Source of the DNA: an uncultured bacterium
Lineage (GTDB): Bacteria; Patescibacteriota; JAHJAL01
Length of the DNA: 64,000 nt
NCBI GenBank assembly: GCA_938004065.1
Contig: CALKWM010000013.1
Span: 75,914-139,913 of the forward strand
Reading direction: 5' to 3'
The notes beneath the pieces were generated by a model. The model saw only the letters and a program-made list of their open reading frames with translations. It was not told where the DNA came from and ran no database searches. The first letter of the stretch is position 1; the number at the start of each line of letters is the position of its first letter. Positions 27,112 to 46,072 of this stretch are shown piece after piece. Made by a program: the position numbers and the translations under genes.

Positions 27112-27114
27112 TAG

Positions 27115-27618: not shown

Positions 27619-27669
27619 CGAGCAATAATATAGGATGATTGTTAGTGACTACAAAACAGGTTTGATTTT

Positions 27670-28311
27670 GTGAATTTCATTGTGTTTATCAGTAAAATAA
27701 TTTATATGCCAAAGTCTAGAGGAGAATATTCGGAAGATATTGAAAGTCAATATAGAAGACTTGAGAGAGTATATAATAAGTTAACTCAAGATTTTAACAA
27801 AGAAAGTTTATCAAAAAGTTCTCAAGAGATTCTTGATTCTGTGATTGAATTTATGACCGTTTGTTATCACTTGCGTGAATTGATAAAAAAAGACCGAAAG
27901 GTTAACAATGTTATTAAGAATAAGTTGCCATTATTTACAGATGTAGATAATAACATTGACCCTACTGATTCAAAAATTGGTTTATTAATTTGTCGTGATT
28001 TGTGTAACAAGTCTAAACATGGATCATTAGACAAAAAGTGGAGACCAAATGATGAGCATACAAAGATTAATATAACTGGTGGGTCGCTGTTTTCAGTTTC
28101 AGTAGAAGAATTAAAAGCCGCTAATAAAGAAAAAATGACTATTCATCTTAAGGAAGGTGATAGTATTTATATAGGAAATTTTACGGTTTTTTTTCGAGGA
28201 AAAAATTATAATTTACTTGGTGTGGTGGATTCATGTATGCATTTTTGGAAAAAATTTTTTGAAGAAAATAATCTTCTTATGCCGAGATATACATTGCGAA
28301 ATAACTTGTGA
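27670..28311 (+). CDS. Hypothetical protein
   Basis: 213-aa ORF. Its stop codon lies inside box 1 of repeat family B. Confidence 0.45.
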   Translation: MNFIVFISKIIYMPKSRGEYSEDIESQYRRLERVYNKLTQDFNKESLSKSSQEILDSVIEFMTVCYHLRELIKKDRKVNNVIKNKLPLFTDVDNNIDPTDSKIGLLICRDLCNKSKHGSLDKKWRPNDEHTKINITGGSLFSVSVEELKAANKEKMTIHLKEGDSIYIGNFTVFFRGKNYNLLGVVDSCMHFWKKFFEENNLLMPRYTLRNNL

Positions 28312-28412
28312 GTAAGGGAGGGGGGTAACTAAATTGTAATCAGTTAATTGGTTTTAGTTTTGAGTATTGCGCGGAGTTTTTCTTAAAAACACAGTTTATG
28401 ACTGTGTTTTTA
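28306..28412 (+). repeat. Repeat family B copy 1 (box 1 over the stop codon, box 2, then a terminator hairpin)
   Basis: Box 1 is gtgagtaagggaggggggtaactaaattgtaat. Box 2 is ttgcgcggagtttt. The terminator is aaaaacacagtttatgactgtgttttt. Confidence 0.6.
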
Positions 28413-28485
28413 TTAATTAGAATTTAATACTATTATTGTATAATAACGTTTGGAACTTAGATTGTATATTTTCTGTTAATAAAAT

Positions 28486-29244
28486 ATGGCGATGAAAATG
28501 TTTGAAAAAGCGATAAAAAATTTTATTCCTTATATGATAGCTATTCTTGTAGGGATAGTTTTTTGTTACTTGTTAATTAGTCTTGGTGGTAGTTTGTCGA
28601 GTGTATTTATTGAAATCTCTGTTTTTTTGTTAATATTGTTCATCTGTTATGTGATTTTTTTATTTGTAGATGAAAAAGAGAGTAATTATATTATGACTCT
28701 CGAAGAAGGCAGAGATATTGCAAATAATAATTTAGAAAAGGACCAAATTTTGTCTTTATTGTGTAGTTATGGGTCCCAAAGAGTTGGTCAAGATCAGGTT
28801 GTTTGGAATATGTTTGGTGCTTTTTGGGCTACAAATGCATTGTTATTGGTTAGTGTTTTTTCTGCTGATGAAGTATGGGATAAAAAATATGTTTGGTTAG
28901 TTGTGTCATTAATTGGTTTTATGGTCTCGGTGGCTTGGTTTTTAGTTCAGGATAGAATGTTGAATAGAATTGCTAGATATGAAATTTCAATTAAGTTTAT
29001 AGAAAAAACGTTAGTTTTTCCAAAACCATTGAGAACATATTCAAATTCTCCTCTAAGGTCCTTGATTGATGTAAGGGCTAGAAATGTTATGCGTTTGGTT
29101 GTTTTTTTGATCGGTGTGACTTGGTTGATAAAAGCCTTACTTGTATATGTACCTTCAATATTTATTATTGTAATTAAGTTTTTTGTTTGGATTGTTGCAG
29201 TGTTAGTATGGGTTATTGCATATTTGCTAAGTATTTTGTATTAG
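28486..29244 (+). CDS. Polytopic membrane protein, hypothetical
   Basis: Six or more hydrophobic helices. Confidence 0.5.
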   Translation: MAMKMFEKAIKNFIPYMIAILVGIVFCYLLISLGGSLSSVFIEISVFLLILFICYVIFLFVDEKESNYIMTLEEGRDIANNNLEKDQILSLLCSYGSQRVGQDQVVWNMFGAFWATNALLLVSVFSADEVWDKKYVWLVVSLIGFMVSVAWFLVQDRMLNRIARYEISIKFIEKTLVFPKPLRTYSNSPLRSLIDVRARNVMRLVVFLIGVTWLIKALLVYVPSIFIIVIKFFVWIVAVLVWVIAYLLSILY

Positions 29245-29312
29245 TAAAGTGGTTCTAACATCGTGTATTGCGCGGAGTTTTGTTTTGAAAGCACAGTTTA
29301 TGACTGTGTTTT
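29243..29312 (+). repeat. Repeat family B copy 2 (box 2 plus terminator hairpin, box 1 degenerate)
   Basis: Box 2 is gttctaacatcgtgtattgcgcggagtttt. The hairpin is the same aaagcacagtttatgactgtgttttt as in copy 1. Confidence 0.55.
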
Positions 29313-29381
29313 TGTTGTTTTTGTATTGAATTGAGATATATTAGTGATATGATTAACTTACTAGTTGGTTAATATGATTTT

Positions 29382-29969
29382 ATGAAAAATAATAATGCTA
29401 AATCAGGTATAATACAGAACACAAAAGAGTTAATAATAAAGAAGGCTTCCGAATTGTTTGCTGATAGCGGTTATCTTGGTGTTTCTATGGAGGATATTGC
29501 CAAGCAACTTAGTATTACAAAAGCCGCTTTGTATTATCATTTTACTGGAAAGGAAGAGTTGTATTCTTCGGTATTGGATGATGTATATTTATCGATGAAT
29601 AAGAAGATAGAAGCAATAAATTTAAAACAAGATTCAACGAAAATTCTGGAGGATTATATTAAGGTTTATATTGATTTTACGATGAAGGAAAAGACATTAT
29701 TGAAAATTTTGTTGCCTAGGGTGATGATGGAAAATGAGGAAATTAGAAAGAAAATTCTTAGTATTCGTAATTTATTCTTGGAAAAAGTTAAGTTTCACTT
29801 AAAAGAGATTGGTAGACAGAAATATCAAAAAGATAAAAAAATGTTGGAGGATGATTCCTTGATGATTATGTATTTTGTTGAAGGATTGCTGTTTGACAAT
29901 TTGATGATAAATAATAAGATTAATTCTTCTAAAATATCTAAGATAATCGTGGCGAAAATAGCAGATTAA
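29382..29969 (+). CDS. TetR-family transcriptional regulator
   Basis: HTH GVSMEDIAKQLSITKAALYYHF. Confidence 0.75.
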   Translation: MKNNNAKSGIIQNTKELIIKKASELFADSGYLGVSMEDIAKQLSITKAALYYHFTGKEELYSSVLDDVYLSMNKKIEAINLKQDSTKILEDYIKVYIDFTMKEKTLLKILLPRVMMENEEIRKKILSIRNLFLEKVKFHLKEIGRQKYQKDKKMLEDDSLMIMYFVEGLLFDNLMINNKINSSKISKIIVAKIAD

Positions 29970-30631
29970 TTGAAAATTATGTCTTTGAGATGATTGATTG
30001 TTTGCTTTGAATAGATAATAGAAATATGTCCCAGAACATTAATTTGTATGTTTTGGGTATTTTTTAATTGGCTAGAAATACTTGGAACTATCTCATCATA
30101 TTTTGATCTGAGGTTAATAATTTTTGGTCTGAATTTATTTTGTGATAATTTTTTCAGAAATTTGCTATTAAGAACGAGTTGATCGGCGGGAATAAATTGT
30201 TGTGGAGGTAATATATTGGCTAGAGGACTGCCATGAATAGGCGAAGCTATTGTGATAACTTTTTTTATTGTTTTTGGATATTTTTTTTCGTAGTTTAGGG
30301 CAATTATTCCACCTAGACTATGGCCGATTAGAATGATGTTTTTGAGTTGATGTTTTTTGATATATTGATTCAGTTTGTCGGTTGTTTTTTCTATGTCTTC
30401 GATATACCATCCAAGATTGGGTATATGAATATTGTGGTTTGATTTATTGAGTTTTTTGAGAAAAGGATAGTAGAGTGGGTGTTGGGTAAACCAGCCGTGA
30501 AGAAAGATGATATTTTTACGGTTAATTGGAGAGGAAATAATTGTTTCTGGCAAAAATATTTGAAATAAGCCGGAAGGAATATAGAGAAAAATGAGGATTA
30601 TTTCGCTGACAATATTGATGATGGTAAGCAT
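29966..30631 (-). CDS. Alpha/beta hydrolase (lipase/esterase-like)
   Basis: GxSxG nucleophile elbow GHSLGG. An N-terminal TM anchor is present. Confidence 0.65.
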   Translation of the reverse strand: MLTIINIVSEIILIFLYIPSGLFQIFLPETIISSPINRKNIIFLHGWFTQHPLYYPFLKKLNKSNHNIHIPNLGWYIEDIEKTTDKLNQYIKKHQLKNIILIGHSLGGIIALNYEKKYPKTIKKVITIASPIHGSPLANILPPQQFIPADQLVLNSKFLKKLSQNKFRPKIINLRSKYDEIVPSISSQLKNTQNIQINVLGHISIIYSKQTINHLKDIIFN

Positions 30632-30816
30632 ATTGTAATGATTATAAATAATGAAAAGCTCCCTAAAAAATATTCAGGGAGCGTGAATTTATTTTATTTT
30701 TATAATGAACTCGCTAATCAATGTCGTTGATTTACTGAGTCCAAGAAAATATATGTATATATTAGCGGCAAGATATCCTAGCCAATAAAGAATGTTTATA
30801 ATTGCTTTTATTTTTA

Positions 30817-31359
30817 TCATTGTTTTTTCTCCTTTCTGGGAAGTAGCAGGGGTAATCCCAATAGGGAATAACCGAAAGACATGATAATGATCAAAAATTG
30901 AATCGCTGTATTTTGCTGGAGGCTGAATAATCCAATATAGATTATTATCATGTATGGATGTGCCATATGCAGAAATATGCCGCTATAAATGAATGTGGCT
31001 ATGATTGATAGTTTATGATTTTTACTACCTCCGCAAAAATCATAAACTTTTCTGGTTATCGAGTGTGTTACTGGATTCCAGGTGGCCCAGAAGGCCTGAT
31101 AGGCACTAGGGATATCTCTTTTTTTTAGAAATCTATGAATGAGTTTTGTGTTTAGGAATTTCTTATTGCTATTTTTTTCTATTTCTAGAAAATATTCTGA
31201 TAAAAAATTGTTGTTGGTAAAGGTCTTAATAGAAAAAGAAAAGCAGTAGACATAATACGAAAAAGTTAATAGAATTATTTTCTTTAGTTCAACTAACTTC
31301 TTGTATTGTTCTAGGCATATTATTCTTTGTTTTGTAATTGACAGAAAATATGCTTGCAT
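30817..31359 (-). CDS. Hypothetical membrane protein
   Basis: Several hydrophobic helices. 180 aa. Confidence 0.4.
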   Translation of the reverse strand: MQAYFLSITKQRIICLEQYKKLVELKKIILLTFSYYVYCFSFSIKTFTNNNFLSEYFLEIEKNSNKKFLNTKLIHRFLKKRDIPSAYQAFWATWNPVTHSITRKVYDFCGGSKNHKLSIIATFIYSGIFLHMAHPYMIIIYIGLFSLQQNTAIQFLIIIMSFGYSLLGLPLLLPRKEKKQ

Positions 31360-31480
31360 TATTCATCCTCCTTTAACTGTACCCGACTTGGTACTTGATT
31401 TTTTCCATTTTTCTATTACAATTGTATTATACTAACCGAACGGTAAGTAAGTCAAGTATTATTTTTAAATTGATTGTTGT

Positions 31481-32716
31481 GTGATGAAGGAACTAGTAAA
31501 CAATTTGCGAATTTCTCTATTTTTGGCCTATAGGGGAATTGTGCGTGGTAATATTGGAACTATCTTAATGACGATAATGATGATGGTGTTGGCTTTTTTA
31601 AATTTGGTGTTTTTATCATCTATTTTTACTGGAATATCAAAGGCGATAGATAGTCAAGCTATAAATATGATGTATGGCAATATATTAATAAAGCCAGGCA
31701 AGGATGATTTTTATATTAAGGATGTGGCCAATAAGATAAGGTTGATTTCTGGTTTGCCAGGGGTAGTTGGAGCGTCTAGTCATTATGTGGATAGTTTATA
31801 TATAGAATTTGATCCTGAGCAGGATGGTTTGGATGTAAAGTCGGGAAATTGGATAACGAAAGCAGTTAATATAAATGAAGATCGACTAGTATCGAATGTA
31901 TCCGATTATATTGTGGAAGGAAGGTTTTTGGATGAAAATAGTCGTGATGAGATTGTTTTAGGCAGAGACGTTGCTGGCACTCATGGAACGGATAAATATA
32001 ATTCTTCTTTGAAAGGTGTGAAGGTGGGCGATAAAGTTTATGCCACTTTTTCCAATGGAATTCGGAGGGAGTATAGGGTAGTTGGAATATTTATGTCAAA
32101 GTCTTTGTTTGCGGATAGCATGATATATATTTCCAAAAACGAATATCAATCTGCTTATCGTGTGAACGGTGTGGCTAATGAGATTGCGGTGAAATTGGAT
32201 CAGGATAATTTGGAAGAAAAATATATAAAAATTATTAAGTCATTGGGTATTGATGATGTGGATATTAAATCATGGAGAGAAGTTAATGAGTTGGGAGGGG
32301 GTATCACCAATAGTTTTACGATGATTAAAGGTATGCTGTCAGCGATTGGTATGCTAGTGGCCGCAGTAACGATATTTATTATTATTTTTGTGAGTGTGGT
32401 GAATCGGCGGAAACAGATTGGAATCATGAAAGCGATTGGTATGCAGGAAGAAATAATTATTATTTCATATATTTGGCAGTCTTTGTTTTATGCTTTGTGT
32501 GGAGTGGTATTCGGTTTGATTATTATGTACAAAGCAATAATTCCGATATTTGTTACTTATCCGCTTGATTTTCCTGTCGGATATGTGAGTTTGGTGTTAA
32601 GTAATAATGATTTATGGACGGCTAGTATTGGTCTTATAGCATCAGCTTTTATAGGTGGGTTAATTCCGTCATTAATGGGAGTAAAAGAGTCAATTTTAAA
32701 ATTAATTTGGGGCTAA
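31481..32716 (+). CDS. ABC transporter permease, FtsX/MacB-like
   Basis: N-terminal TM helix, a roughly 230-aa extracytoplasmic domain and three C-terminal TM helices. Overlaps the downstream ATPase gene. Confidence 0.65.
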   Translation: MMKELVNNLRISLFLAYRGIVRGNIGTILMTIMMMVLAFLNLVFLSSIFTGISKAIDSQAINMMYGNILIKPGKDDFYIKDVANKIRLISGLPGVVGASSHYVDSLYIEFDPEQDGLDVKSGNWITKAVNINEDRLVSNVSDYIVEGRFLDENSRDEIVLGRDVAGTHGTDKYNSSLKGVKVGDKVYATFSNGIRREYRVVGIFMSKSLFADSMIYISKNEYQSAYRVNGVANEIAVKLDQDNLEEKYIKIIKSLGIDDVDIKSWREVNELGGGITNSFTMIKGMLSAIGMLVAAVTIFIIIFVSVVNRRKQIGIMKAIGMQEEIIIISYIWQSLFYALCGVVFGLIIMYKAIIPIFVTYPLDFPVGYVSLVLSNNDLWTASIGLIASAFIGGLIPSLMGVKESILKLIWG

Positions 32717-33715: not shown

Positions 33716-33838
33716 GGTTTGGTTTTTTTGGGTGATTTTTTTAGTATCGCCTGATATTTTTATGATTTAAAAGATTGACATAATTGGTTATTTTGTGCTA
33801 TAATGTAGTGATTGTCAGGATGGATTAATTAAAAAGAA

Positions 33839-35878
33839 ATGAAAAAATACAATCTAATAAAAGGCAGATATTGGGAGCAGAAATCTTTATCTTCGAAGGA
33901 TGATAAGGGTGTAAAAGAATGGCAAAAACCGTTTCAAGAGGCAACCGAGAAAGCGGCGAGGCGAACCGAGAGAGAACAGGGTGAAAAGATCCCGAGAGGC
34001 AATGTGGAGAAGATGATTGGCAATTATCTGGATCGCTGGGAGCGGATTGAAGAACAGCGTGGTGGATTGCTGCGAAGATTTTTGGAGCGAAAATATATCA
34101 TCAAGCCGGAAAATATCACCGATGACTATATCCGTAATGTGCTGCTGGGCAACTATGCTGAACTCAAAGGATACGACCGGGAAAAACTGGCCAATGCGGA
34201 AGTGAAAGCGCAAATTGGCAAAATGTTTGAGCAGGAAACGGGCAAAAATCCCAGTAATTTTTCCATATCCAAAAAAGAAAAAATTGATGAGCAAGAGCGC
34301 ATTGTAGCCGATCAGAAAGCCAGTCTGAACGGGTGGCTGGACTATCTGGGTGGGGAGGAAGCCAAAGAAAATTATCCCCGAGAGTTCCGTTATTGGGCGA
34401 TGGCGGAGGTGGTGAAACTGGGAGCGCAAAACAAGGACAAACTGGATTATACCAAGCGCGATCAATATACGGCTGCACCTTTCCCGGAATTGAATCAACA
34501 GGCGCTGGCCAAGGTGTTTGACGAGGTGAAGAGGAAACTGGAAAAAGAACCGTCGCAAATCGGGCTAAACGAAGAAAAAAAGAGGGAGGAATATGAAAAA
34601 AGATTAAAGGGAATGAATTTCGGCAAGCTTTATGGCTGGATGATTGATTATATCAATTCATTGAAACTGCCAATGGAGCGGCTGCCGATCACCCAGGGAG
34701 AGTGGAAAAAATTTGCCAAAAATTCTGATCCCAAAGAATTGACCAGGACAATTCAGGGATTCAATACCGGCTGGTGTATCGCCGGTGAAGGGACGGCCGG
34801 CAGTTATCTGAAAAATCAGGATATCTGGATATATTATTCGGCCGATCAGGAAGGTCAAAACTCAATCCCGCGGGCGGCGGTGGTGACGGATGGCTCAAAA
34901 GTTTTGGAGGTGCGCGGTATTATCCAGACCAGGGAAGTGAAACAGCATCTGGATGACTATATCGCGCCGGTGGTGGAAAAGAAGCTAAAGGAACTGCCGG
35001 GCGGGGAAGAATGGAAGGCGGGCATGGAAGACATGAAATATCTGGCGGAAATTCATTTCAAGCATATGCAAAAAAAACCATTCGACAAGAGTGATCTGGA
35101 ATTTGTCTATGAGCTGGATCATCCGATCAGGAGTATGGGTTACGGGAAGGATCCGCGCATCGAAGAGATCAGAGAAACCAGGGATCTCGAAGCCGATATA
35201 TTGACGGTATTTGATTGTCAGTCGAATGAGATTGTTCACAGTCCAGAAGAACTTAATCAAAACACCAAAGCATATGTCGGAAAATGGAATGTTGATGTCT
35301 GGCAGAAAGTCAAAGAATATCCCAACATCAAACATCTCTTCGAATCATTTCCGGATAAGAAAATATTCATGCGAAAACTGACCACTGATCCAAATGTTGA
35401 CTCGCCTCAGTCCGCCAAAGAAGCTCTGGAGAGTAAGAATATATATGTAGCTGATTGGGCAAAAGATATTTTAGCTAAAACCAAATTCAACCCGGAAAAA
35501 CGAGAATATGAACTGGTGCGATTTACGGTGGCCGATCTTGGGTTTCCTGACGGCGCAACCACGGCGGAAATAATTGGTACGAAAAATGATAAGGATGATA
35601 ATGGCCAACCCGCTCCTTTTACTAGAGGCCGAATGACTGAGCTAGGTCTCTATCTTTGTCCGGCCGAGGTCGGGCCACATTTACGGTTGCAAAACTCCAG
35701 TCAAGATTGGATGTTGATTGCCATGGAACCCATTATCGGCTCCGGTGGCGCTCCGAGCGTGTTCCGTCTGCACTACGGCGGCGGCCGGCTGGAGCTGGAT
35801 GCGTACTACGCTGGGCCGGACGAGCACTGGCTTTCTGCCTATCTTTGGGTCTTCTCTGCCCGCAAGTTTGATACTTAG
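33839..35878 (+). CDS. DGR target protein 1 (679 aa) with a C-terminal variable repeat in a putative C-type-lectin-fold domain
   Basis: The C-terminal roughly 40 aa are encoded by the VR that matches the TR except at adenines. Paralogue of the next gene. Confidence 0.75.
   Translation: MKKYNLIKGRYWEQKSLSSKDDKGVKEWQKPFQEATEKAARRTEREQGEKIPRGNVEKMIGNYLDRWERIEEQRGGLLRRFLERKYIIKPENITDDYIRNVLLGNYAELKGYDREKLANAEVKAQIGKMFEQETGKNPSNFSISKKEKIDEQERIVADQKASLNGWLDYLGGEEAKENYPREFRYWAMAEVVKLGAQNKDKLDYTKRDQYTAAPFPELNQQALAKVFDEVKRKLEKEPSQIGLNEEKKREEYEKRLKGMNFGKLYGWMIDYINSLKLPMERLPITQGEWKKFAKNSDPKELTRTIQGFNTGWCIAGEGTAGSYLKNQDIWIYYSADQEGQNSIPRAAVVTDGSKVLEVRGIIQTREVKQHLDDYIAPVVEKKLKELPGGEEWKAGMEDMKYLAEIHFKHMQKKPFDKSDLEFVYELDHPIRSMGYGKDPRIEEIRETRDLEADILTVFDCQSNEIVHSPEELNQNTKAYVGKWNVDVWQKVKEYPNIKHLFESFPDKKIFMRKLTTDPNVDSPQSAKEALESKNIYVADWAKDILAKTKFNPEKREYELVRFTVADLGFPDGATTAEIIGTKNDKDDNGQPAPFTRGRMTELGLYLCPAEVGPHLRLQNSSQDWMLIAMEPIIGSGGAPSVFRLHYGGGRLELDAYYAGPDEHWLSAYLWVFSARKFDT
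35735..35865 (+). repeat. DGR variable repeat VR1
   Basis: 131 bp aligned to the TR at 38441-38571. There are 24 mismatches, all at TR adenine positions. The 3' segment tgggtcttctctgcccgcaa is conserved and looks like an IMH (initiation of mutagenic homing) sequence. Confidence 0.85.
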
Positions 35879-35973
35879 ATTCTTAGACTCTTTGCTTTTC
35901 TTTTGACTCTTTGTAGCTTTGACCCTTTGACCCTTTGATTTTTGAATCGCGCATTAATTAAGAAAGAAAAATT

Positions 35974-38118
35974 ATGGAAAACAAAAAACAAAACCAAATG
36001 GAAGAGAGTAGATTTTTGCTCCACAAAGAGCCGGATCTGTATAAAAGTGAACCGGTGGAAAAAGCCGTAGAAAAATACAAGCGTCTCAAGAGAGCCGGAA
36101 TAGAAGTGGAGCCGATGGATATCGGTACCAAGGCAGGACGAGTAAAAGCATATATTGATCGGCTAGAAAAAATATACAATCCTGTGCCAGTCAAGAAAGA
36201 ATCAAATTTTGATCGTCGGGAGAGAAATATTAAACTGCTAAACAAGGTTTGGGAGAAACTGGGCACAAGAGAGAAAATCCTTCAGGAAAATATTACCATT
36301 GGCTTGAATGATATTCCTCAAAGTTACTACAACAACAAGGCCCGCATCATGATCGAACAGGGATACGGGGGTGATCTGGAAAGTGGCGGAGTGGTCAAAG
36401 AAAAATATACCGACAAGAAAGGCATAGAAAGAATTAACTATATTTTTCCGGAAGAGATGCGGGAGAAAGAGCTGGAGATAATCCGCAACAATCAAACCAG
36501 AAGTCTGGACAAGTGGCTGAACTACCTTAATTCTGTTGATGCCATGTATCCGGCTTGGGGCAAGCACTGGGCTTTTACCTCAATCCTCAAACTGGGCAAA
36601 TTCCAGAAAAAAGCGGAGATTGATGAAGAGGGAAATATCTCTAATGAGAGGGCAAAATTCCAAAAGAGAAAAAAAAGTACAGTTAACTCCTATCCACTGC
36701 TTAACCCCCGAGCGTTGGCGGTGACGATCGGAACAATGACCAATTATCTGGAAGAAAAAGCCAAGCCAAAAGAACAAAGAGAGTCAATTAAGAACGAAAG
36801 CAAAAAATTAAATGATGAAGAATTTCAAAAACTAATATCAGCAGAGAATTTTGGTGATATTTACGCTCAATTTCTGCTGGAAATGCCGGAGTATTCGGTA
36901 GAAGGTCTAAAAGGGACTGAAGGAAAGTGGGTCAAGTACGTGCAGATAGATGAATATGATGGCGATGATGTAGTCGATGAGCTAGTGAAAAGTATTGAAG
37001 GATATCCACTGGAATGGTGTACGGCCGATCCGGACACGGCCAGGAGTCAACTCGAGCAGGGAGATTTCTGGGTGTATTATTCTTTTAACGAAGACGGTGA
37101 GCCGGTAATTCCCCGTCTGGCCATTCGGATGGAAGGTCAAAACAAGATTGCCGAACCACCTCGCGGTATCGCACCCGATCAAAATCTGGATCCGTATATC
37201 GGATCGGTGTTGGAGAAGAAGCTACAAGACTTTGGCAGTGAAGGAGAGCTTTACAAAAAAAGAGTGGCCGATATGGAAAGATTGACGACTATTTGGCAGA
37301 AAGCAAAAGATGAGAAAGAAATAACTAAGGAAGAGCTGATATTTCTCTACGAAATCGAGGAGAATATTCAAGGGTTTGGGTATGAGAAAGATCCCCGCAT
37401 CAAAGAGATCAGAGAGACCAGAAACCCGGAAAAAGACATGCCGGTAGTATTTGATTGCCAGCCGGAAGAAATAGCTTACAGTCCAGAAAAACTAAACCCA
37501 AACACCAAAGCCTATGTTGGTAAGTGGAATGTGGAAATTTGGCAGGAGATTAGAAAGTACCCCGGCATCAAACATCTCTTCGAATCATTTCCGGACAAAA
37601 AAATCTTCATGCAAAAACTTACCACTGAGGCAAATATCAACTCACCCGAATCGGCTAAAGAGGCTCTGAAAGACAAAAATATCTATGTTTCTGATTGGGC
37701 GAAAGACATTCTTTCCGAAACCAAATTCAGCCCGGAAAAACGAGAATATGAACTGGTGCGATTTACGGTGGCCGATCTGGGATTTCCACGTGGCGCAACC
37801 ACGGCGGAAATAATTGGTACGAAAAATGATAAGGATGATAATGGCCAACCCGCTCCTTTTACTAGAGGCCGAATGACTGAGCTAGGTCTCTATCTTTGTC
37901 CGGCCGAGGTCGGGCCACATTTACGGTTGCAAAACTCCAGTCAAGATTGGATGTTGATTGCCATGGAACCCATTATCGGCTCCGGTGGCGCTCCGAGCGT
38001 GTTCCGTCTGCACTACGGCGGCGGCCGGCTGGAGCTGGATGCGTACTACGCTGGGCCGGACGAGCACTGGCTTTCTGCCTATCTTTGGGTCTTCTCTGCC
38101 CGCAAGTTTGATACTTAG
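35974..38118 (+). CDS. DGR target protein 2 (714 aa), paralogue of target 1 with an identical C-terminal VR
   Basis: The last roughly 115 aa are nearly identical to target 1. The final roughly 390 nt, VR included, are 100% identical to those of target 1. Confidence 0.75.
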   Translation: MENKKQNQMEESRFLLHKEPDLYKSEPVEKAVEKYKRLKRAGIEVEPMDIGTKAGRVKAYIDRLEKIYNPVPVKKESNFDRRERNIKLLNKVWEKLGTREKILQENITIGLNDIPQSYYNNKARIMIEQGYGGDLESGGVVKEKYTDKKGIERINYIFPEEMREKELEIIRNNQTRSLDKWLNYLNSVDAMYPAWGKHWAFTSILKLGKFQKKAEIDEEGNISNERAKFQKRKKSTVNSYPLLNPRALAVTIGTMTNYLEEKAKPKEQRESIKNESKKLNDEEFQKLISAENFGDIYAQFLLEMPEYSVEGLKGTEGKWVKYVQIDEYDGDDVVDELVKSIEGYPLEWCTADPDTARSQLEQGDFWVYYSFNEDGEPVIPRLAIRMEGQNKIAEPPRGIAPDQNLDPYIGSVLEKKLQDFGSEGELYKKRVADMERLTTIWQKAKDEKEITKEELIFLYEIEENIQGFGYEKDPRIKEIRETRNPEKDMPVVFDCQPEEIAYSPEKLNPNTKAYVGKWNVEIWQEIRKYPGIKHLFESFPDKKIFMQKLTTEANINSPESAKEALKDKNIYVSDWAKDILSETKFSPEKREYELVRFTVADLGFPRGATTAEIIGTKNDKDDNGQPAPFTRGRMTELGLYLCPAEVGPHLRLQNSSQDWMLIAMEPIIGSGGAPSVFRLHYGGGRLELDAYYAGPDEHWLSAYLWVFSARKFDT
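37975..38105 (+). repeat. DGR variable repeat VR2 (identical to VR1)
   Basis: Sequence identical to 35735-35865. Confidence 0.85.
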
Positions 38119-38440
38119 ATTCTTAGACTCTTTGCTTTTCTTTTGACTCTTTGTAGCTTTGACCCTTTGACCCTTTGATTTTTCTTGGGGTATTCTATTA
38201 TATTAAAATCAGATTGATTGTTTCGGACGGCTACGGCTTTCCGAAAATCATTCCGACCGGTGCAAGTTAAGTATGTTATCGGCCAAGGCTGGTAACAGAG
38301 ATTTGTATTTTGTCATTAAAAAAGAACAAACTTGGTGTGGTGTGCTCCGGGTGATTTTTGATCACAAATAATATTCAGTCCAGTCTTTTTTGAGCCAATC
38401 AACCAGACGGACGGTGGCGAGGATGGCACACCATACGAAA

Positions 38441-38571
38441 ATCGACTCCGATGGCAATCCGAACGTGTTCAATCTGAACTACAACGACGACCAGCTGAAG
38501 CTGAATGCGAACAACGCTGAGCCGGACAAGCACTGGAATTCTGACAATCATTGGGTCTTCTCTGCCCGCAA
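38441..38571 (+). repeat. DGR template repeat (TR)
   Basis: Adenine-rich copy of the VR. Every TR-VR difference maps to a TR adenine. The overlapping ORF 38390-38710 is judged non-coding. Confidence 0.85.
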
Positions 38572-38594
38572 TTATGCTCTTTTCCGTGACTTGA

Positions 38595-38915
38595 TCACAA
38601 ATCGCGGTTTTTTCTGGCTGGGTTATCTAGGTTTTTATGCCAGCCGCCCAGCATCCGACCGGCTTCGATTAATTTCTCGGAAATTGCTGTATATTTGCCA
38701 TTGGGAATGATCCTGGCTTCCCAAGCTATTGAAGTCAGGAATTTAAGGACATCGAGAGTTAGGATGCATTTGGTTAGCTGATCTTTTTTCTGATCTTTGG
38801 CGGAATAGTAGGCGGCATGTGTCAATTCCAACAGATCGAGAAATTTATTTTCAATTCTTTGGCCGATAGTAAAACGGGAGGTTTTGGGAATATGGGGAAC
38901 AAGATCAATCCACAA
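38595..38915 (-). CDS. avd: DGR accessory variability determinant (Avd-like four-helix-bundle protein)
   Basis: 106 aa. Resembles the four-helix-bundle / 23S-rRNA-intervening-sequence protein family (TIGQRIENKFLDLLELTHAAYY...) to which Avd belongs. Sits between the TR and the RT. Confidence 0.7.
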   Translation of the reverse strand: MWIDLVPHIPKTSRFTIGQRIENKFLDLLELTHAAYYSAKDQKKDQLTKCILTLDVLKFLTSIAWEARIIPNGKYTAISEKLIEAGRMLGGWHKNLDNPARKNRDL

Positions 38916-38962
38916 CAGATATCCCTCTTTGATCCGAAAGAGGATCGAAGGAAGTTCTTTAC

Positions 38963-38981
38963 GAGAGAGAGAGAGAGAGAG
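38963..38981. repeat. (GA)9 dinucleotide microsatellite between the avd and RT genes
   Basis: gagagagagagagagagag read directly from the sequence. Confidence 0.8.
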
Positions 38982-39034
38982 TAAGAAGGCGGCCGCGATT
39001 TCATAGTTATGAAGATATTATTTCAATAGATAAT

Positions 39035-39988
39035 TTGTTGGAGGCCTGGCGGGAATTTTTACGGGGTAAAAGAAAAAGAAAAGATGTAGCCGAGTTTTCA
39101 TTGAACCTGGCTGACAATATTATTTTACTGCATCGCGAGTTGTCTAACCAAACTTATTGCCATGGATCATATCAATCATTCAGAATTAATGATCCCAAGC
39201 CCAGGCAAATTCACAAAGCCAGTGTTCGTGACCGACTGGTGCATCATGCGGTTTATCGCGTTCTATACTCTTATTTTGACTGCAAATTTATCTTCGACTC
39301 CTATTCCTGTCGGCAAAAGAAAGGCACACATCGAGCTATTAACCGATTTCGAGAATTTGGGCGAAAAGTCTATCGCAACCATACTAAAACAGTTTGGGTA
39401 TTGAAGTGTGATATTAAAAAATTCTTTGCCAGCATTGATCAAGTGATTTTACTGGATATATTGAGAAAATACATTTCAGATGAAAAAGTTATGTGGCTAT
39501 TGGGACAGATTATTGACAGTTATTTTGAAAAAGGAAAGAATTTAGTTGGCCTGCCACTTGGTAATTTGACCAGCCAGTTGCTGGTTAATATTTATATGAA
39601 TGAGTTTGATCAATTTGTAAAAAGAGAACTGCGAGCAAAGTATTATATCCGTTATGCGGATGATTTTGTGGTTTTATCGAAGGATAGAAAATATCTGGAA
39701 AATTTATTGCCGACGATAGAAAGAATTTTGGAAGAGAGATTGAAGCTATCTTTACATCCGGAAAAATTATTTATTAAAACGCTCGCTTCTGGGATTGATT
39801 TCCTGGGATGGGTGCATTTTCCCCATCATCGAGTGCTGCGCACAACTACCAAAAGAAGGATGATGAAGAAATTACGCAGCAAAGAGCCAGAGGCTGGCAT
39901 GCTCGAATCATATCTGGGACTACTATTACATGGCAATACGTGGAAGTTAATGAAAAAATTGGATTGTATGTTGAGAGCGAATGAATAG
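39035..39988 (+). CDS. DGR reverse transcriptase
   Basis: RT motifs include YIRYADDFVVL (YADD). The DGR-specific motif-4 variant is LPLGNLTSQLLVNIY (LGxxxSQ in place of the group II QGxxxSP). Apparent TTG start. The in-frame upstream peptide SYEDIISIDNLLEAWREF suggests an earlier non-ATG start. Confidence 0.85.
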   Translation: MLEAWREFLRGKRKRKDVAEFSLNLADNIILLHRELSNQTYCHGSYQSFRINDPKPRQIHKASVRDRLVHHAVYRVLYSYFDCKFIFDSYSCRQKKGTHRAINRFREFGRKVYRNHTKTVWVLKCDIKKFFASIDQVILLDILRKYISDEKVMWLLGQIIDSYFEKGKNLVGLPLGNLTSQLLVNIYMNEFDQFVKRELRAKYYIRYADDFVVLSKDRKYLENLLPTIERILEERLKLSLHPEKLFIKTLASGIDFLGWVHFPHHRVLRTTTKRRMMKKLRSKEPEAGMLESYLGLLLHGNTWKLMKKLDCMLRANE

Positions 39989-40119
39989 CTAGTGAGCGAG
40001 GGTGTGGGGTAATAGTTGGCTCTCTATAAAACAAGTTCTAACATCGTGTATTGCATCCGCCCAAGGCGGACAGGCTGGAGTTTAGTTTTTGAAAGCACGC
40101 TTTGTAGGCGTGTTTTTGC
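39989..40119 (+). repeat. Repeat family B copy 4, carrying a nested GC palindrome
   Basis: ctagtgagcgagggtgtggggtaatag...gttctaacatcgtgtattgc, then the inserted atccgcccaaggcggacaggct, then ggagttt, then the terminator gcacgctttgtaggcgtgtttttgc. Confidence 0.6.
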
Positions 40120-40231
40120 TATATGGTATAAAGATTTATGGGAATATCAATGATTATTGCAAGAAATTCTGTTTGCATGTCGTAATAGGTAGTGCATACC
40201 TGTGGGGACTCTTTAGATTATTTCTATTTCA

Positions 40232-41005
40232 ATGCTAAAAGATATCAGAAAATTTAATCGGTTTGAGTTGAAATATGTGATTACACTTGATCAGTTGGAG
40301 CGATTGCGAAATATCGTGACCGATTTTGCTGTGCCCGATCAGCGGGGGAATAAAGAGGGTAAATACGTTATTTCCAGTTTGTATTACGACGGTGATGATT
40401 ATCGGTTTTATTGGGAAAAGGTGGAGGGTTTGAAATTCCGGCGCAAATTGCGTATCAGGCATTATGAGACGGATAAAAAATTGGGACCTAATTCAAAGGT
40501 TTTTGTGGAGATCAAGCAGAGAGTGGATCGAGTTACTCAAAAACGACGAGTGGCGATGAAGTACAAAGAAGCGTTGCAGTTGTGTGACGGGCGGGAGATT
40601 CCGGGTGGTTTTGAGAATGATCCGGTGGTGGAGGAGATATATTCGATGCTGCAAATTTATGACCTCAAGCCCAAAGCCATTACCAGTTATTGGCGACAGG
40701 CGTTTGTCGGGCATGATTATGATATGGGTTTAAGGGTGACGTTTGATACTGATTTACGTTACCGGGTGGATGATCTGGATTTGGCGTCGAAGAAGATTGG
40801 TGATTTTTTGATTTCACCGAAGTTGGCGGTGTTGGAGATAAAGGTGAATGAGCGCGTGCCGTATTGGATAACAGAAGTGGTGGCCAGTCAGAATGTTCGA
40901 CTGGTGAGAATCAGTAAATATTGCCAGGTGATTGAGATGGCGGGGTTGGTTCCTAAAAATCAATATTATATAAATTATTTGAATTCATTAGTTAGGAGTA
41001 ATTAG
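40232..41005 (+). CDS. VTC/CYTH-like (polyphosphate-polymerase-domain) protein
   Basis: The N-terminal FELKYVI (ExK) start of a triphosphate-tunnel fold. This is the family that usually pairs with DUF4956 and CotH genes. Confidence 0.5.
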   Translation: MLKDIRKFNRFELKYVITLDQLERLRNIVTDFAVPDQRGNKEGKYVISSLYYDGDDYRFYWEKVEGLKFRRKLRIRHYETDKKLGPNSKVFVEIKQRVDRVTQKRRVAMKYKEALQLCDGREIPGGFENDPVVEEIYSMLQIYDLKPKAITSYWRQAFVGHDYDMGLRVTFDTDLRYRVDDLDLASKKIGDFLISPKLAVLEIKVNERVPYWITEVVASQNVRLVRISKYCQVIEMAGLVPKNQYYINYLNSLVRSN

Positions 41006-41007
41006 TT

Positions 41008-41700
41008 ATGGACCAGTTAATGGAAATCTTAAATTTTCAGGATTTGACCGGGACTTTTTCGGTGACGGATGTTGTTTTGTCACTGGTGTTAAGTTTTGTA
41101 CTCACATCTTTTATCGGTTGGCTGTATCAGAAGACGCATAAGGGAACATCATATACTCAGAGTTATGTGCATACGCTGGTGCTGATGGGAATGGTAGTGA
41201 GTATTATTATGTTGATCGTGGGATCGAATATTGCCCGGGCGTTTTCGCTGGTGGGAGCGCTGTCGATAATTCGTTTTCGTAATGCGGTTAAAGAAACTCG
41301 GGATGTCGGTTTTATCTTTTTTGCGATGGCGATTGGGATGGCAACAGGAACCAAGTTTTATCTGCTGGCGGTGATTGCGACAGTGATTATCAGTCTGGTG
41401 ATATTGCTAATGAATCGATTTGACTGGTTTTCGCGAAGGATGAGTGGCCAGATATTAAAAATTCAGTTAAATAATGATGAAGATTATGAAACTATTTTTA
41501 ATGATGTGTTTGTAAAATATACAGATGTGGCTGAGTTAATCAGTGCTGATTCGGTGCGGTCAGGATTGTTGACGGAATTGGTGTATAACGCGACGTTGAA
41601 AAAGGGAGTAAAAAAACAGGAATTTGTTTCGGAGATTAGGAAGCTAAATGGAAATTTGAAGGTGACATTATTGACCGGATATAATTCAATGGATTTGTAA
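41008..41700 (+). CDS. DUF4956-like membrane protein
   Basis: Four TM helices followed by a soluble C-terminal domain. Conserved neighbour of VTC and CotH genes. Confidence 0.5.
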   Translation: MDQLMEILNFQDLTGTFSVTDVVLSLVLSFVLTSFIGWLYQKTHKGTSYTQSYVHTLVLMGMVVSIIMLIVGSNIARAFSLVGALSIIRFRNAVKETRDVGFIFFAMAIGMATGTKFYLLAVIATVIISLVILLMNRFDWFSRRMSGQILKIQLNNDEDYETIFNDVFVKYTDVAELISADSVRSGLLTELVYNATLKKGVKKQEFVSEIRKLNGNLKVTLLTGYNSMDL

Positions 41701-41701
41701 T

Positions 41702-43333
41702 ATGAATTTGAACTGGCGACGAAATTATTGGATAGTTCTAGCTCTGCTGAGTGTGGTGGGGCTATTGTTGCTAATGGGTGACTATCGGATAATTTCGTAT
41801 AACTGGCTGGTGGAGAAGGAAGATGAGGAGTTGGTTGGCAATAATTATGATAATACTGTGTACTTATTTGATGACTCGCAGGTGCATGATATTGAGATCG
41901 CGATCAGTGATGAGAATTATGATAAGATGATAGCGACATATCAGGAAACGGGCGAGAAGGATTATTTTCCGGCTGATGTGGTAATAGATGGGGTGACGAT
42001 AGAGAATGTCGGGGTGAGGTTAAAAGGGAATATGACCTTGAGAACTGTATTGGGAGAAGGTGGTGGCGAGGCGGAATTTGGTCCCGGTGGAGGAATGGGT
42101 CAGGATGGTCCGTCCGGTGGTTTTGGTGGTAGAGGAGAAAGGCCCGATTTACCTGATGGCATGGAAATGCCGGAAGGTATGAATTTTCCCGGGGGTGGTG
42201 ATGGAGAAGGTGATATGTCTTTACCGGTGGGAATGGGTATGCAGATGGAAATGACGGAAGAGTTACAGGATCGTTTGCCGATGTTGGTGAGGTTTGATGA
42301 ATATGTGGCCGGGCAAACCTATCAGGGTTTGAGCGAGATAGCACTGCGAATTGCGACGGGAGATGATGCTTTTAGTTTGTTGAATGAGCAGGTGGCTTAT
42401 GGAGCGCATAAGGTGGTTGGACAGATAGTGCCGGAGACTGCTTATGTAGCAGTACAAGTTGATGGTCAGGAGCAGTATGTATATGTGGTATCAGAAGTGA
42501 TAAATGAGGAATATGTTGAAAAACATTTTGGGGGTGATGGAGTTTTGTATAAAGCGGACAATTTTGTAGGATTTGATTATCTGGGAGATGATCCGACTTT
42601 GTATGTCGAAAAATATGAGCAGAAGACTATGATAAATGACTATGATCTGAAATATTTGATTGAGTTTTTGAAGTTTGTGGATCAGTCGAGTGATGAGGAG
42701 TTTGAGTCACAGTTGTCTGGCTGGCTGGATATAGATTTGTTGATGCGGATGTTGGCACTGGATGAGTTACTGACCAACAATGATTCATTCGGTGGAATGG
42801 GCAGTAATTATTATTTGTATTATGATCTTGATGAGGAAAAATTTTATTTTTTGAGTTGGGATATGAATCTGGCAATGGGTAATATGGGGGGTGGTGGACA
42901 AGGAATGCCGGGACAGATGGGATTTGATCGGGGTGAATTTGGTGACTTAGGAGAGGGGATGGGTGAAGAAGGTTTATTGCCGGAAGGATTTGAGTCGCCA
43001 GAAGGTTTTAACGGAGCCGAAGGATTTGGACCGGGTGGAAGGCAAGGATCAAACAAACTGAAAGAAAGATTTATGGCCAATGAAAAATATAAGCAGATGT
43101 ATGACGAAGTTTATGAAAGTCTGAAGAAAATGTTATTTGATGGGGGTTATCTGGAAAAACGAGCTGATTATTTGTCAGGAGTGTTTTTGGATTGGAATGA
43201 ATACACTGGATTAATGAATGAAGAAGATTATATCAATGGACTGGAGACGCTGAAGGATTTTATTGCTAATGGTCCCAAAAATGAGAGTTTTGGAGATGGA
43301 GTTGAGGCGGTAGATGAATTTCCAGCAAACTAG
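41702..43333 (+). CDS. CotH-family (atypical kinase-like) protein with Gly/Met/Glu-rich low-complexity inserts
   Basis: CotH core ...GVRLKGN..., ...NYYLYYDLDEEKFYFLSWDMNLAMG.... Two G/M/E/P-rich inserts. N-terminal TM/signal segment. Confidence 0.65.
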   Translation: MNLNWRRNYWIVLALLSVVGLLLLMGDYRIISYNWLVEKEDEELVGNNYDNTVYLFDDSQVHDIEIAISDENYDKMIATYQETGEKDYFPADVVIDGVTIENVGVRLKGNMTLRTVLGEGGGEAEFGPGGGMGQDGPSGGFGGRGERPDLPDGMEMPEGMNFPGGGDGEGDMSLPVGMGMQMEMTEELQDRLPMLVRFDEYVAGQTYQGLSEIALRIATGDDAFSLLNEQVAYGAHKVVGQIVPETAYVAVQVDGQEQYVYVVSEVINEEYVEKHFGGDGVLYKADNFVGFDYLGDDPTLYVEKYEQKTMINDYDLKYLIEFLKFVDQSSDEEFESQLSGWLDIDLLMRMLALDELLTNNDSFGGMGSNYYLYYDLDEEKFYFLSWDMNLAMGNMGGGGQGMPGQMGFDRGEFGDLGEGMGEEGLLPEGFESPEGFNGAEGFGPGGRQGSNKLKERFMANEKYKQMYDEVYESLKKMLFDGGYLEKRADYLSGVFLDWNEYTGLMNEEDYINGLETLKDFIANGPKNESFGDGVEAVDEFPAN

Positions 43334-43405
43334 TGAGGAGGGGTGTGGGGTAACTAGCATGTAACCACTAAAGCGGTTCGAACTAAAGTGTCCACCGAAT
43401 CGGCG
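43329..43405 (+). repeat. Repeat family B copy 5 (box 1 supplies the TAG stop of the CotH gene)
   Basis: aaactagtgaggaggggtgtggggtaactagcatgtaacc, then gcggttcgaac...ccaccgaatcggcgg. Confidence 0.55.
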
Positions 43406-43539
43406 GATGCATGGATTATTTAGATGAGAGGAACCGAGCTTTACTCTCGTAGTTCGCTACTCTCATTGTTCCCCTTTGTTAAGGAATAAAAAAAGACCAA
43501 ATGAATGGTTATTTATGAAAAATCAATGTATCTAGTTGT

Positions 43540-43758
43540 TTATTTTGATTTGCGTAGGTTGAAAATTAACATTATCCAAATGATTATATTGATCGAGCCA
43601 TAAATATATGTTTGTTGATAGCTTCTAGGACCAGCGCAATCTGCACAAAAACTGCAACTTGGAATGCATAGATTAGAAATTATTTGATATGAGTCAAAAC
43701 ATAAGTAAAGAGTAATTATGGCAAGAGCAAGTAGGATGATGGAAAATATGTATTTCAT
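43540..43758 (-). CDS. Small Cys-rich membrane protein, hypothetical
   Basis: 72 aa with an N-terminal TM helix and a CxxxC...C cluster. Confidence 0.3.
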   Translation of the reverse strand: MKYIFSIILLALAIITLYLCFDSYQIISNLCIPSCSFCADCAGPRSYQQTYIYGSINIIIWIMLIFNLRKSK

Positions 43759-43890
43759 TAATACTAGTTTTGTAATTTATTTCTGTATTTTTATTATATG
43801 ATATTTTTAAGAAAAATATTGTTGTGTACTAAATTAACAAATGTGTTATGATTGATTAAGGAAAGATATTTTATTTGATTTTTGTAAAAA

Positions 43891-44373
43891 GTGAGGGAAG
43901 TTATGAATTTTGAAAGTGTAAATTTTGGACCAAAGACCTATCTGGGTATTCGAAAGATATTAACTTTTGAAGAGATGAAAGATGGGAAAAATTATGAGTA
44001 TGCGTTTGGAAAAGTGATGGGGTATTTAGGGGAAAAAGGCATGGTACCGGTAGGTCCGCCGGTTAGCATTTATTTTTCCTGGGATGAAGTGAACCAGAAA
44101 ACGGAAATGGGGATCGGATTTCCTGTTGAAGGTTTGACAGAGGTTGAGGATGGGGAATTGGTGTTAATGCCGATTGAGGAAAGCAAAGCGGTCAAGGTGT
44201 TGCACGTTGGTGATTATATGAAGTTAAAAGATACGCATGATGCGTTGATGAAATATCTACAGGAGAACAATTTGGAATTTGATAAATATGCGATCGAGGA
44301 ATATTTGACGGATGCCAACAGAGAACCGGACGTGTCAAAATGGATGACAAATGTTTACTATACAGTGAAGTGA
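43891..44373 (+). CDS. GyrI-like/effector-binding-domain protein (tentative)
   Basis: 160 aa. The pattern GPKTYLGIR...FEEM...YEYAFGKVMGYL resembles the small-molecule-binding GyrI-like fold. Confidence 0.4.
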   Translation: MREVMNFESVNFGPKTYLGIRKILTFEEMKDGKNYEYAFGKVMGYLGEKGMVPVGPPVSIYFSWDEVNQKTEMGIGFPVEGLTEVEDGELVLMPIEESKAVKVLHVGDYMKLKDTHDALMKYLQENNLEFDKYAIEEYLTDANREPDVSKWMTNVYYTVK

Positions 44374-44555
44374 TTTTTTTAAATATTTGTTAGAGAGTTA
44401 AAAAAAGTCTTGCCGGATCAAGGTGAGACTTTTTTGAAAAATATTTTGTTTTTTACTAAAAATATGAAGAGTGAATTTTTTATAGTATTAGTTTTTATTT
44501 GTTATAGTTAAATTATAGCAATGGTGATTGTATGGATATAATTTAAATTTAATGA

Positions 44556-45146: not shown

Positions 45147-45202
45147 AATTTTTTTAATGAGTGAGATGTTTCGTTATGTTTTGGTAAATTAATGAATAAA
45201 TT

Positions 45203-45883: not shown

Positions 45884-46072
45884 ATTTTGAATGATTTTGT
45901 CAGGATTGCGGTGGTTAAAAAGAAGAAAAAAGTATTTAAAAAACGAAATTTGTAATGATGTTTATATATGAAAAATGATAGGCAAAAATGTTTCATAAAA
46001 AAAAGTATTGCAACATATCCCATAATGTGCTACAATTGGTTTGTAATGGGAAATATCCAATAACTAACAATC

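Follow-up and report, generated by a model that had tools for sequence, protein, structure and literature searches.

Why should two adjacent target genes of a single DGR carry identical VRs, when an active element would be expected to diversify each of them independently? This question is raised by a locus in a 64,000-nucleotide stretch of DNA from an uncultured bacterium of the Patescibacteriota (the window; all coordinates count from its first base).

The locus is a genuine and complete DGR of the Patescibacteria (CPR) type, in which two tandem targets are accompanied by a template repeat (TR), an Avd gene in reverse orientation and a reverse transcriptase (RT). The first target gene (33839–35878, forward strand) is an open reading frame coding for 679 residues, and is followed on the same strand by its tandem paralogue, an open reading frame of 714 residues (35974–38118). 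Identity between the two proteins is about 55% across the C-terminal 540–560 residues (140–679 of the first and 155–714 of the second) and their N-termini before residues 140 and 155 do not align, which bears out the original prediction that the upstream parts of the genes are merely paralogous. The TR (38438–38571, forward strand) is 134 nucleotides long with 41 adenines, and aligns without gaps to the VR of the first target (VR1; 35732–35865, forward strand), all 26 mismatches falling at TR adenines. The VR of the second target (VR2; 37972–38105, forward strand) is identical to VR1 in the window assembly, and the match of the TR to both confirms that these are two DGR targets, as had been proposed. 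The VRs end in an invariant G+C-rich stretch, TGGGTCTTCTCTGCCCGCAA (35845–35865, second copy 38085–38105, forward strand), which is common to the TR and marks the start of the IMH; it is followed by GTTTGATAC in the VR and by TTATGCTCT in the TR (IMH versus IMH*). The role of this stretch as an IMH is predicted by analogy with the Bordetella phage model (PMC5758913).

The Avd accessory protein (106 residues; 38595–38915, reverse strand) is recognised by the Pfam model bAvd (E 8.9e-16; 58.8 bits against a cut-off of 40), and scores 69 bits with the NCBIfam model DivGenRetAVD, just below its cut-off of 80. The RT (316–317 residues; 39035–39988, forward strand) matches the Pfam model RVT_1 (E 3.7e-23) and contains YADD and LGNLTSQ motifs. 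Its best match among solved structures is 8ub7_A (328 residues; E 8.8e-39), which we take to be the Bordetella phage RT, with group II intron and retron RTs matching at 6e-17 or weaker. A phage origin of the locus was considered and rejected, as there is no match in the phage collection and the window has chromosomal genes including dnaG, rpoD and metG. Upstream of the first target, a consensus scan (12/12) identified a sigma-70-type element with consensus boxes (TTGACA, 18 nucleotides, TG-TATAAT; 33775–33804, forward strand), which is predicted from its sequence to function as a promoter.

Much of this recalls the DGRs of CPR/Patescibacteria (clade 2 of Roux et al. 2021): an RT closest to that of the Bordetella phage DGR, an Avd protein, a 134-nucleotide TR that departs from a C-terminal VR at adenines only, a G+C-rich IMH, and a target without recognisable domains, as for other CPR targets (PMC8144416). 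Target 1 has no Pfam or NCBIfam match, and an AlphaFold2 model of target 2 (pLDDT 84.6) has no fold match in the PDB; a search with target 2 recovered 366 homologues, and target 1 is a member of a large uncharacterised protein family of Patescibacteria (CPR). A single-target layout recurs in about 40 related loci, with TRs of 114–143 bp that begin about 410–510 bp downstream of the VR start, leaving about 280–400 bp between VR and TR. The order of target, TR, reverse avd and RT may correspond to architecture B3 of Wu et al. 2018, to which passages of that paper assign 90% of their CPR set. The locus is unlike these systems in its two tandem targets, since only one other tandem pair is found among 80 related loci of the target family; more broadly, passages of Wu et al. 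(PMC5758913) place two targets inside the cassette in 13% of DGRs, and more than one target in about 15%.

When one target gene is set against the other with a shift of 2240 bp, the longest perfect match measures 392 bp without a single mismatch, extending from 35552 to 35943 in the first copy and from 37792 to 38183 in the second (both forward strand), in each case the end of the target gene and 65 bp beyond its stop codon. The identity had earlier been placed at 35555–35945 and 37795–38185, off by at most 3 bp. From 5' to 3' the block comprises 180 bp of coding sequence preceding the VR, the VR itself, the last four sense codons with the stop codon TAG (35866–35878), and 65 bp of 3' untranslated sequence, giving a total of 78 bp beyond the end of TR homology. 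Nucleotide identity between the targets stays at the random level up to about 35000, reaches about 78% over 35138–35551 and about 85% over 35450–35551, is 100% inside the block, and drops sharply to random at 35944. An identity of 392 bp cannot have originated by chance.

We compared the window assembly (W) with two publicly available assemblies of this near-clonal organism, ERZ724101 NODE_34 (A, locus L001) and GCA_036848155.1 (B, locus L002), which cover 22 kb of the locus and were possibly built from the same reads. VR1 equals VR2 in every one of the three, and only two haplotypes occur among them: hapW, the sequence printed in the window, is found in both genes of W and B, exact at all 36 sites at which the haplotypes differ, and hapA in both genes of A. 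All 36 sites lie within 35641–35844. Across 22,145 bp, the differences between A and B are confined to these 36 sites in copy 1 and the same 36 in copy 2, with none at the 22,073 other positions. W in turn differs from both A and B by two single bases in the background, at 35916 and 37629. The haplotypes thus group W and B against A, and the background groups A and B against W, and the two groupings are discordant.

Among the 36 differences, 24 are at TR-adenine sites; compared with the TR, the window haplotype has 26 of 26 mismatches at adenines and the alternative haplotype 29 of 30. Another 11 (35641–35726) lie upstream of the TR homology, in a segment that is not templated by the TR (35641–35731, second copy 37881–37971, forward strand), and 7 of these 11 are at third codon positions. 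Third-position identity between hapW and hapA in this segment is 0.77, as against 0.74 between the paralogues just upstream, and within the TR-templated VR the third positions are identical between the haplotypes in 44 of 44 cases. This pattern is the signature of two paralogues that have each been rewritten from the same TR, rather than of one lineage diversifying. Neither blastn nor an adenine-tolerant ungapped scan of both strands of the window found a second or longer TR that would cover the 11 upstream differences. An ancestral TR of 225 bp is likewise unsupported, the TRs in the related loci being at most 143 bp. A 19-mer common to TR and VR has only 4 chance matches in species-representative genomes, and a 33-mer from the invariant flank has no match in metagenome contigs.

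These sites leave little room for the collapse of a hypervariable population, in which the VRs would vary among cells and the assembler would have printed the dominant variant at both copies. The intact appearance of the DGR (RT, Avd, TR and IMH) and the metagenomic nature of the assemblies, with about 16x coverage according to the contig name, would be in keeping with such a population. However, just two discrete haplotypes are seen, one of which recurs at 36 of 36 sites in two assemblies, and the 11 mostly synonymous differences outside the TR-templated region cannot be yielded by DGR activity; we regard this explanation as very unlikely. Synchronous mutagenic homing, with one cDNA or two copies of one replacing both VRs together, might be entertained given that the same IMH and 3' repeat array are present in both targets, so that both should be homing-competent. 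It is rejected because the identity exceeds the TR homology, reaching 180 bp 5' and 78 bp 3' of it, and because both copies carry the changes of the alternative haplotype at 11 sites out of reach of the TR; its probability appears negligible. To our knowledge, no DGR mechanism takes one cDNA to two sites.

We consider it probable that the identity of the VRs reflects an assembly collapse of two different gene ends, one arm of which was printed in both genes, and the equality of VR1 and VR2 is most likely not biological. In the genome one target would have the hapW 3' end and the other target the hapA 3' end. Their shared flanks would merge both copies in a short-read de Bruijn graph at k from 33 to about 71–89, leaving one 204-bp bubble with two arms; the upper bound on k would be about 71 where base 35916 differs, as in A and B, and the 5' flank would allow merging up to k = 89. 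If the bubble was presumably then reduced to one arm, the contig would be threaded twice through that arm and the same VR would appear in both genes. The assignment of one haplotype to each copy is likewise presumed.

Several observations are consistent with such a collapse. When the two copies are represented by hapW and hapA, k-mers are shared only in 35552–35640 and 35845–35943, and exactly one bubble results at k = 33–77. A collapse calls for exact flanks that exceed the assembler k on both sides, and these measure 89 bp and 71–99 bp. The 5' flank (35552–35640, second copy 37792–37880, forward strand) does not vary among the six copies found in the three assemblies, with 29 of 29 third codon positions in agreement, and the 3' flank extends from 35845 to 35915 or 35943. 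A collapse also predicts that alternative sequences should each be printed in all copies at once, which is what distinguishes A from B. Furthermore, a Logan contig built from real reads at k = 31 (SRR6007447_90038, locus L089) matches the window at 100% identity and starts at 38126, the first 31-mer containing the base that separates copy 2 from copy 1. This indicates that the graph does branch at the block edge; the break there fits a repeat, and says nothing of mixed bases. To the left of the block the sole Logan contig (L091) comes from another run and represents a strain that lacks the cassette. No near-identical fragments of broken contigs linked to either copy were recovered when the final 179 or the final 76 residues served as protein queries, and the exact target 2 protein of the window is absent from the contig index.

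Certain features sit less easily with a collapse. A 204-bp bubble with 18% divergence between its arms is large by the standards of routine bubble removal, and reads of 150 nucleotides could join the paralogue-specific positions 35539–35551 to the first haplotype sites at 35641–35686, so that a careful assembler could have resolved it. The difference-free flank of 89 bp is odd beside 90 bp that keep 12% divergence, and calls for the assumption of a further short conversion tract or of a constraint at the DNA level. In addition, the 11 non-TR differences include 8 transitions, every one of them A↔G, as compared with a ratio of 40:25 in the paralogue background (P ~0.02), which hints at an adenine-directed process outside the collapse model.

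The main rival of the collapse is bidirectional gene conversion, that is, a real concerted evolution in which the tandem 3' ends convert one another so frequently that every cell has two identical VRs. Between the paralogues, synonymous identity climbs toward the 3' end (0.52, 0.61, 0.56, 0.74, and then 1.00 over 35552–35640), as would be expected from repeated conversion anchored at that end; the flanks are truly identical anyway, and the W base at 35916 in copy 1 is that of copy 2. To account for the assemblies, an ancestor heterozygous for hapW and hapA would have undergone conversion one way in the lineage leading to W and B, and the opposite way in that of A. Under gene conversion the state of the tract should follow the genealogy of the genomes, but here two opposite conversions would separate A and B, which are otherwise identical, whereas the assembly explanation requires no biological event at all. 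Moreover, a homozygous lineage has lost the other haplotype, and the haplotype grouping conflicts with the two background single-base differences. Concerted evolution of the VRs is on these grounds unlikely. It is also rather improbable that conversion between the targets, possibly prompted by nicks that the DGR makes at the shared IMH and repeat array, is rapid enough to hold the VRs in step, with whole cells flipping between two stored haplotypes. If true, such a two-state cassette of paired targets would constitute a second layer of variation above mutagenic homing, and near-clonal populations would be fixed for either haplotype.

Assembly collapse is not without precedent in these elements. 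Passages of Wu et al. 2018 (PMC5758913) suspect assembly error where tandem DGR targets share VR sequences, and describe a Stenotrophomonas DGR with eight tandem targets and five unique VRs as a possible case. The present locus resembles this precedent in having tandem targets printed with identical VRs, exact shared flanks longer than the usual k, and another assembly that prints a different sequence in both copies; it differs in that the collapse is deduced from three assemblies and one k = 31 contig. In the only other tandem pair among the 80 related loci of the target family (L081), the VRs differ, with 18 of 25 VR mismatches at codon positions 1–2. Among the options originally raised, collapse is the best supported, but probably as a merger of two paralogous ends and not of a population cloud; duplication or conversion stands for the flanks but not for the VR, and synchronous retrohoming falls away.

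If the VRs were indeed collapsed, their identity is a property of the assembly, and the locus is an ordinary two-target DGR with targets independently diversified at 24 adenine sites. It is sound to expect an active DGR to diversify its VRs independently, and this would hold here provided that hapW and hapA represent the two copies. Surveys of DGRs in MAGs can then under-count distinct VRs and misjudge activity where the flanks of tandem targets exceed the assembler k, and a comparison of independent assemblies of one population reveals such collapse without reads. Should the identity instead be real in single molecules, it would imply a very rapid concerted evolution of DGR targets, of which we know of no previous description.

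The flanks (35552–35640, and 35845–35915 or 35943) must be truly identical in any case. They form a tract of identity that includes synonymous sites amid diverged surroundings, as gene conversion leaves, under either explanation. The exact tract, its abrupt 3' end and the synonymous identity climbing toward it are like those of tandem paralogues under concerted evolution; the likeness fits the flanks only, as the VR would need opposite events in otherwise identical genomes. The identity of the flanks is probably due to earlier gene conversion, to a DNA-level requirement of homing (the IMH and the repeat array), or to both. According to passages of PMC5758913, the Bordetella and Legionella elements need a G+C-rich hairpin or cruciform after the IMH, and only 34% of DGRs have one. 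No G+C-rich hairpin was found after the IMH here (the DNA fold of 35840–35960 has −3.5 kcal/mol, z = 0.36), and the locus differs from other CPR DGRs in having in its place, directly 3' of the VR, an array of CTTWGAnn units with an 8-nucleotide period (35866–35943, second copy 38106–38183, forward strand; Tandem Repeats Finder period 8). These are the short repeats of ctttgac type that had been noticed downstream of the VR, and the CTTWGA pattern occurs 6 times in the array where 0.02 occurrences would be expected. Among related loci, at least two strict CTTDGA motifs are present 3' of the VR in 18 of 26; in all, 47 motifs follow the VRs as against 1 after the TRs, and their spacing peaks at 8, 16 and 24.

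The locus is a complete DGR, an ordinary CPR DGR with two targets. The target genes are two paralogous ORFs in tandem, 33839-35878 (679 aa) and 35974-38118 (714 aa), and the last 540-560 residues of their products are about 55% identical. The template repeat (TR; 38438-38571, 134 nt with 41 adenines) aligns without gaps to the variable regions (VRs) of both targets, at 35732-35865 and 37972-38105, and all mismatches between the window VR and the TR (26/26) fall at TR adenines. The remaining components are an Avd accessory gene on the opposite strand (38595-38915, 106 aa; Pfam bAvd, E 8.9e-16; NCBIfam DivGenRetAVD, 69 bits) and a reverse transcriptase gene (39035-39988; best solved relative 8ub7_A, E 8.8e-39). 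VR and TR have a G+C-rich 3' end in common and diverge after it, as would be expected for an IMH at the 3' end of the VR and an IMH* at its TR counterpart. The TR is also spanned by a 106-aa ORF (38390-38710) that shares its frame with the C-terminus of the target (…KIDSDGNPNVFNLNYNDDQLKLNANNAEPDKHWNSDNHWVFSAR…). This ORF is the coding frame that the TR has inherited, in which adenines occupy codon positions 1-2, and it is unlikely to be a gene.

When the window is compared with itself at the 2240-bp offset between the copies, the 3' ends of the two targets form one exact 392-bp run (35552-35943 and 37792-38183), and this identical block, as printed in the assembly, is real. The original prediction had located it to within 3 bp and had called the upstream parts of the genes only paralogous, which agrees with their identity, about 78% for 35138-35551 as a whole and about 85% for its last part, 35450-35551, next to the block. 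Ungapped identity between the copies is at random level before about 35000 and falls sharply back to it at 35944.

Two further public assemblies of the same near-clonal organism were recovered: a protein search hit P0001, which is 96% identical to target 2, on NODE_34_length_148598_cov_16 of ENA ERZ724101 (assembly A), and a cluster look-up found contig DAIUKQ010000005.1 of GCA_036848155.1 (assembly B). Over the 22,145 bp of the window covered by all three (25974-48118), the window and B differ at 2 bases, 35916 and 37629. The window and A differ at these two, at 36 sites in copy 1 and at the identical 36 sites, with identical bases, in copy 2; A and B differ at 72 positions only (the 36 sites in each of two copies). 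The two VRs are thus the same within each assembly, yet there are two haplotypes across them, hapW printed in the window and B, and hapA printed in both genes of A. By haplotype the window groups with B against A, whereas by the two background differences A groups with B against the window. These are the sole bases in 22 kb where the window departs from both other assemblies: at 35916 it has in copy 1 the copy-2 base, G, where the others have A, and at 37629 it has G (Glu), where both others and the homologous copy-1 position have T (Asp).

Twenty-five of the 36 sites lie within 35735-35844 and, with the exception of a C>G at 35811, coincide with TR adenines. The other 11, at 35641-35726, are upstream of any TR homology; neither blastn nor a scan tolerating any mismatch at template adenines found another template for this segment on either strand of the window, and TRs in related loci of the family are at most 143 bp. 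Third codon positions account for 7/11 of these non-TR differences, versus 59% for the paralogues upstream, and the haplotypes diverge here by 12%, versus 15% between the paralogues just upstream. Third-position identity is 0.77 between the haplotypes in this segment and 0.74 between the genes in 35438-35551. In the TR-templated VR it is complete (44/44), because a single TR, with its adenines at first and second codon positions, rewrites both haplotypes. On these sequence criteria the 11 non-TR differences look like paralogue divergence. hapW and hapA are then most naturally read as the two gene copies, each mutagenised on its own, and not as one population at successive times. A consensus drawn from a hypervariable population does not account for the two discrete haplotypes, one of which recurs exactly, or for non-TR differences that are mostly synonymous. 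Twenty adenine sites are changed in both haplotypes, and at 11 of them the bases agree, which is not significantly more than the 38% that the substitution spectrum predicts (P = 0.09). The non-TR differences include eight transitions, every one of them A<->G (against 40:25 in the background; P about 0.02), and each of the 11 is compatible with an adenine in a template, possibly a longer TR at another place in the genome.

We consider it fairly probable that the identity of the two VRs, as a biological claim, is an assembly artefact. One gene of the genome would carry hapW and its neighbour hapA, and shared k-mers would then be confined to 35552-35640 (89 bp) and 35845-35943 (99 bp; 71 bp where 35916 differs). 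Comparison of hapW and hapA at k = 33 to 77 found sharing in the two flanks only, so that a de Bruijn graph would contain a single two-arm 204-bp bubble; the copies stay separate only once k reaches about 99 and so exceeds the 89-bp 5' flank. Assemblers of the SPAdes class probably remove such bubbles, and the contig name of A is in SPAdes style. Were the bubble removed and the repeat then resolved by read pairs, one arm would be printed twice, and which one would be arbitrary if both had equal coverage; this fits two assemblies showing one arm and one the other. A k=31 contig built from real reads (Logan SRR6007447_90038), identical to window 38126-47192, starts exactly at the first 31-mer holding 38156, the base at which the two copies differ in A and B, and therefore the real-read graph branches at the block's edge. 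This break fits any two-copy repeat and by itself shows no two haplotypes. Similarly repeated VR sequences are found among tandem targets in Stenotrophomonas, where Wu et al. 2018 reported only five unique VRs in eight genes and suspected assembly error (PMC5758913). Further supporting context is the family's only other sampled tandem pair (L081), whose VRs differ from each other.

Besides collapse, the original prediction had proposed duplication or gene conversion and synchronous homing of one cDNA. Real gene conversion between the target 3' ends explains the identical flanks and the 3'-ward climb in synonymous identity, but for the VR it requires opposite conversions in genomes otherwise identical over 22 kb, and so serves for the flanks only. 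One cDNA homing into both VRs is ruled out, since it could neither make the 180 bp upstream and 78 bp downstream of the TR-homologous region identical nor alter non-templated sites in both copies. Under the collapse reading, the 89-bp flank (35552-35640), the same in all six copies with 29/29 third positions identical beside a 12% divergence in the next 90 bp, calls for an additional assumption, either a short conversion tract of its own or a constraint at the DNA level.

The 78 bp after each VR (35866-35943 and 38106-38183), where ctttgac-type short repeats had been noticed previously, are indeed an array of CTTWGAnn units repeating every 8 nt, a period that puts TAG and TGA in each of the three frames. 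A similar array lies 3' of the VR in 26 related loci (among L009-L086) whose proteins are just 34-47% identical. In the 100 nt after the repeat these loci contain 47 CTTDGA motifs after VRs versus 1 after TRs (background 0.12 per 100 nt), with pairwise spacings peaking at 8, 16 and 24. The array is therefore a conserved IMH-adjacent feature of the lineage; it may partly explain the conservation of the 3' flank and may be a candidate target-recognition element. In many relatives a G+C-rich hairpin comes next; the two window targets lack it. We found no description of the array in the published DGR accounts consulted.

Profile searches placed the targets in no Pfam or NCBIfam family. A protein search gave 366 matches, and the named members are all from Patescibacteria (CPR) lineages except one (P0015), labelled Gammaproteobacteria. 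About 40 of the 80 sampled related loci share the layout in a single-target form, with TRs that measure 114-143 bp and start about 410-510 bp after the VR start; this layout and the domain-less targets agree with published accounts of CPR DGRs (PMC5758913; PMC8144416). The family has no sequence match in PDB, and its AlphaFold2 models, although confident (pLDDT 84.6 for the whole protein and 93.8 for the VR domain), gave no significant Foldseek match in PDB or BFVD; the predicted VR-domain fold has weak C-type lectin matches only. The one other tandem pair in the sampled loci (L081, 5204-9930) is 90% identical; its VR-like ends differ, and the 3' array is present there too. Its VR mismatches are mostly at codon positions 1-2 (18/25), whereas third positions prevail upstream. 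No TR or RT was found in the 17.8 kb covered at that locus, and the pair may be served in trans or be a remnant.

The window is chromosomal (dnaG, rpoD and metG are present) and has no match in a phage collection. An intergenic repeat, AACTAGTGAGnGAGGGTGTGGGGTAA...GTTCTAACATCG, has three copies on the + strand (33607-~33700, 39981-~40075 and 43322-~43400), two of which bracket the DGR cassette. In a 99.7% identical strain (Logan SRR33777081_93775) homology ends within the first copy, at window 33689, and the strain's sequence runs on into an unrelated ORF, putatively ArsR-like by eye; the cassette is therefore absent there in that strain. The + strand GC skew is extreme over the window (1-64000; +0.3 to +0.47, at about 35% G+C), whereas the cassette (34000-40000) has 41-46% G+C and a skew of just 0.12-0.16, a composition which suggests a foreign origin. 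A gene for a large serine recombinase (17816-19435, minus strand) ends within a tRNA gene (17783-17854), and a low-G+C stretch (26-32%, reversed AT skew) follows in the region 18000-32000; together these look like an integrated element adjoining the DGR region. Inside this stretch lies a match to the Rfam LOOT RNA (23675-23808; 70 bits versus a gathering score of 46.4).
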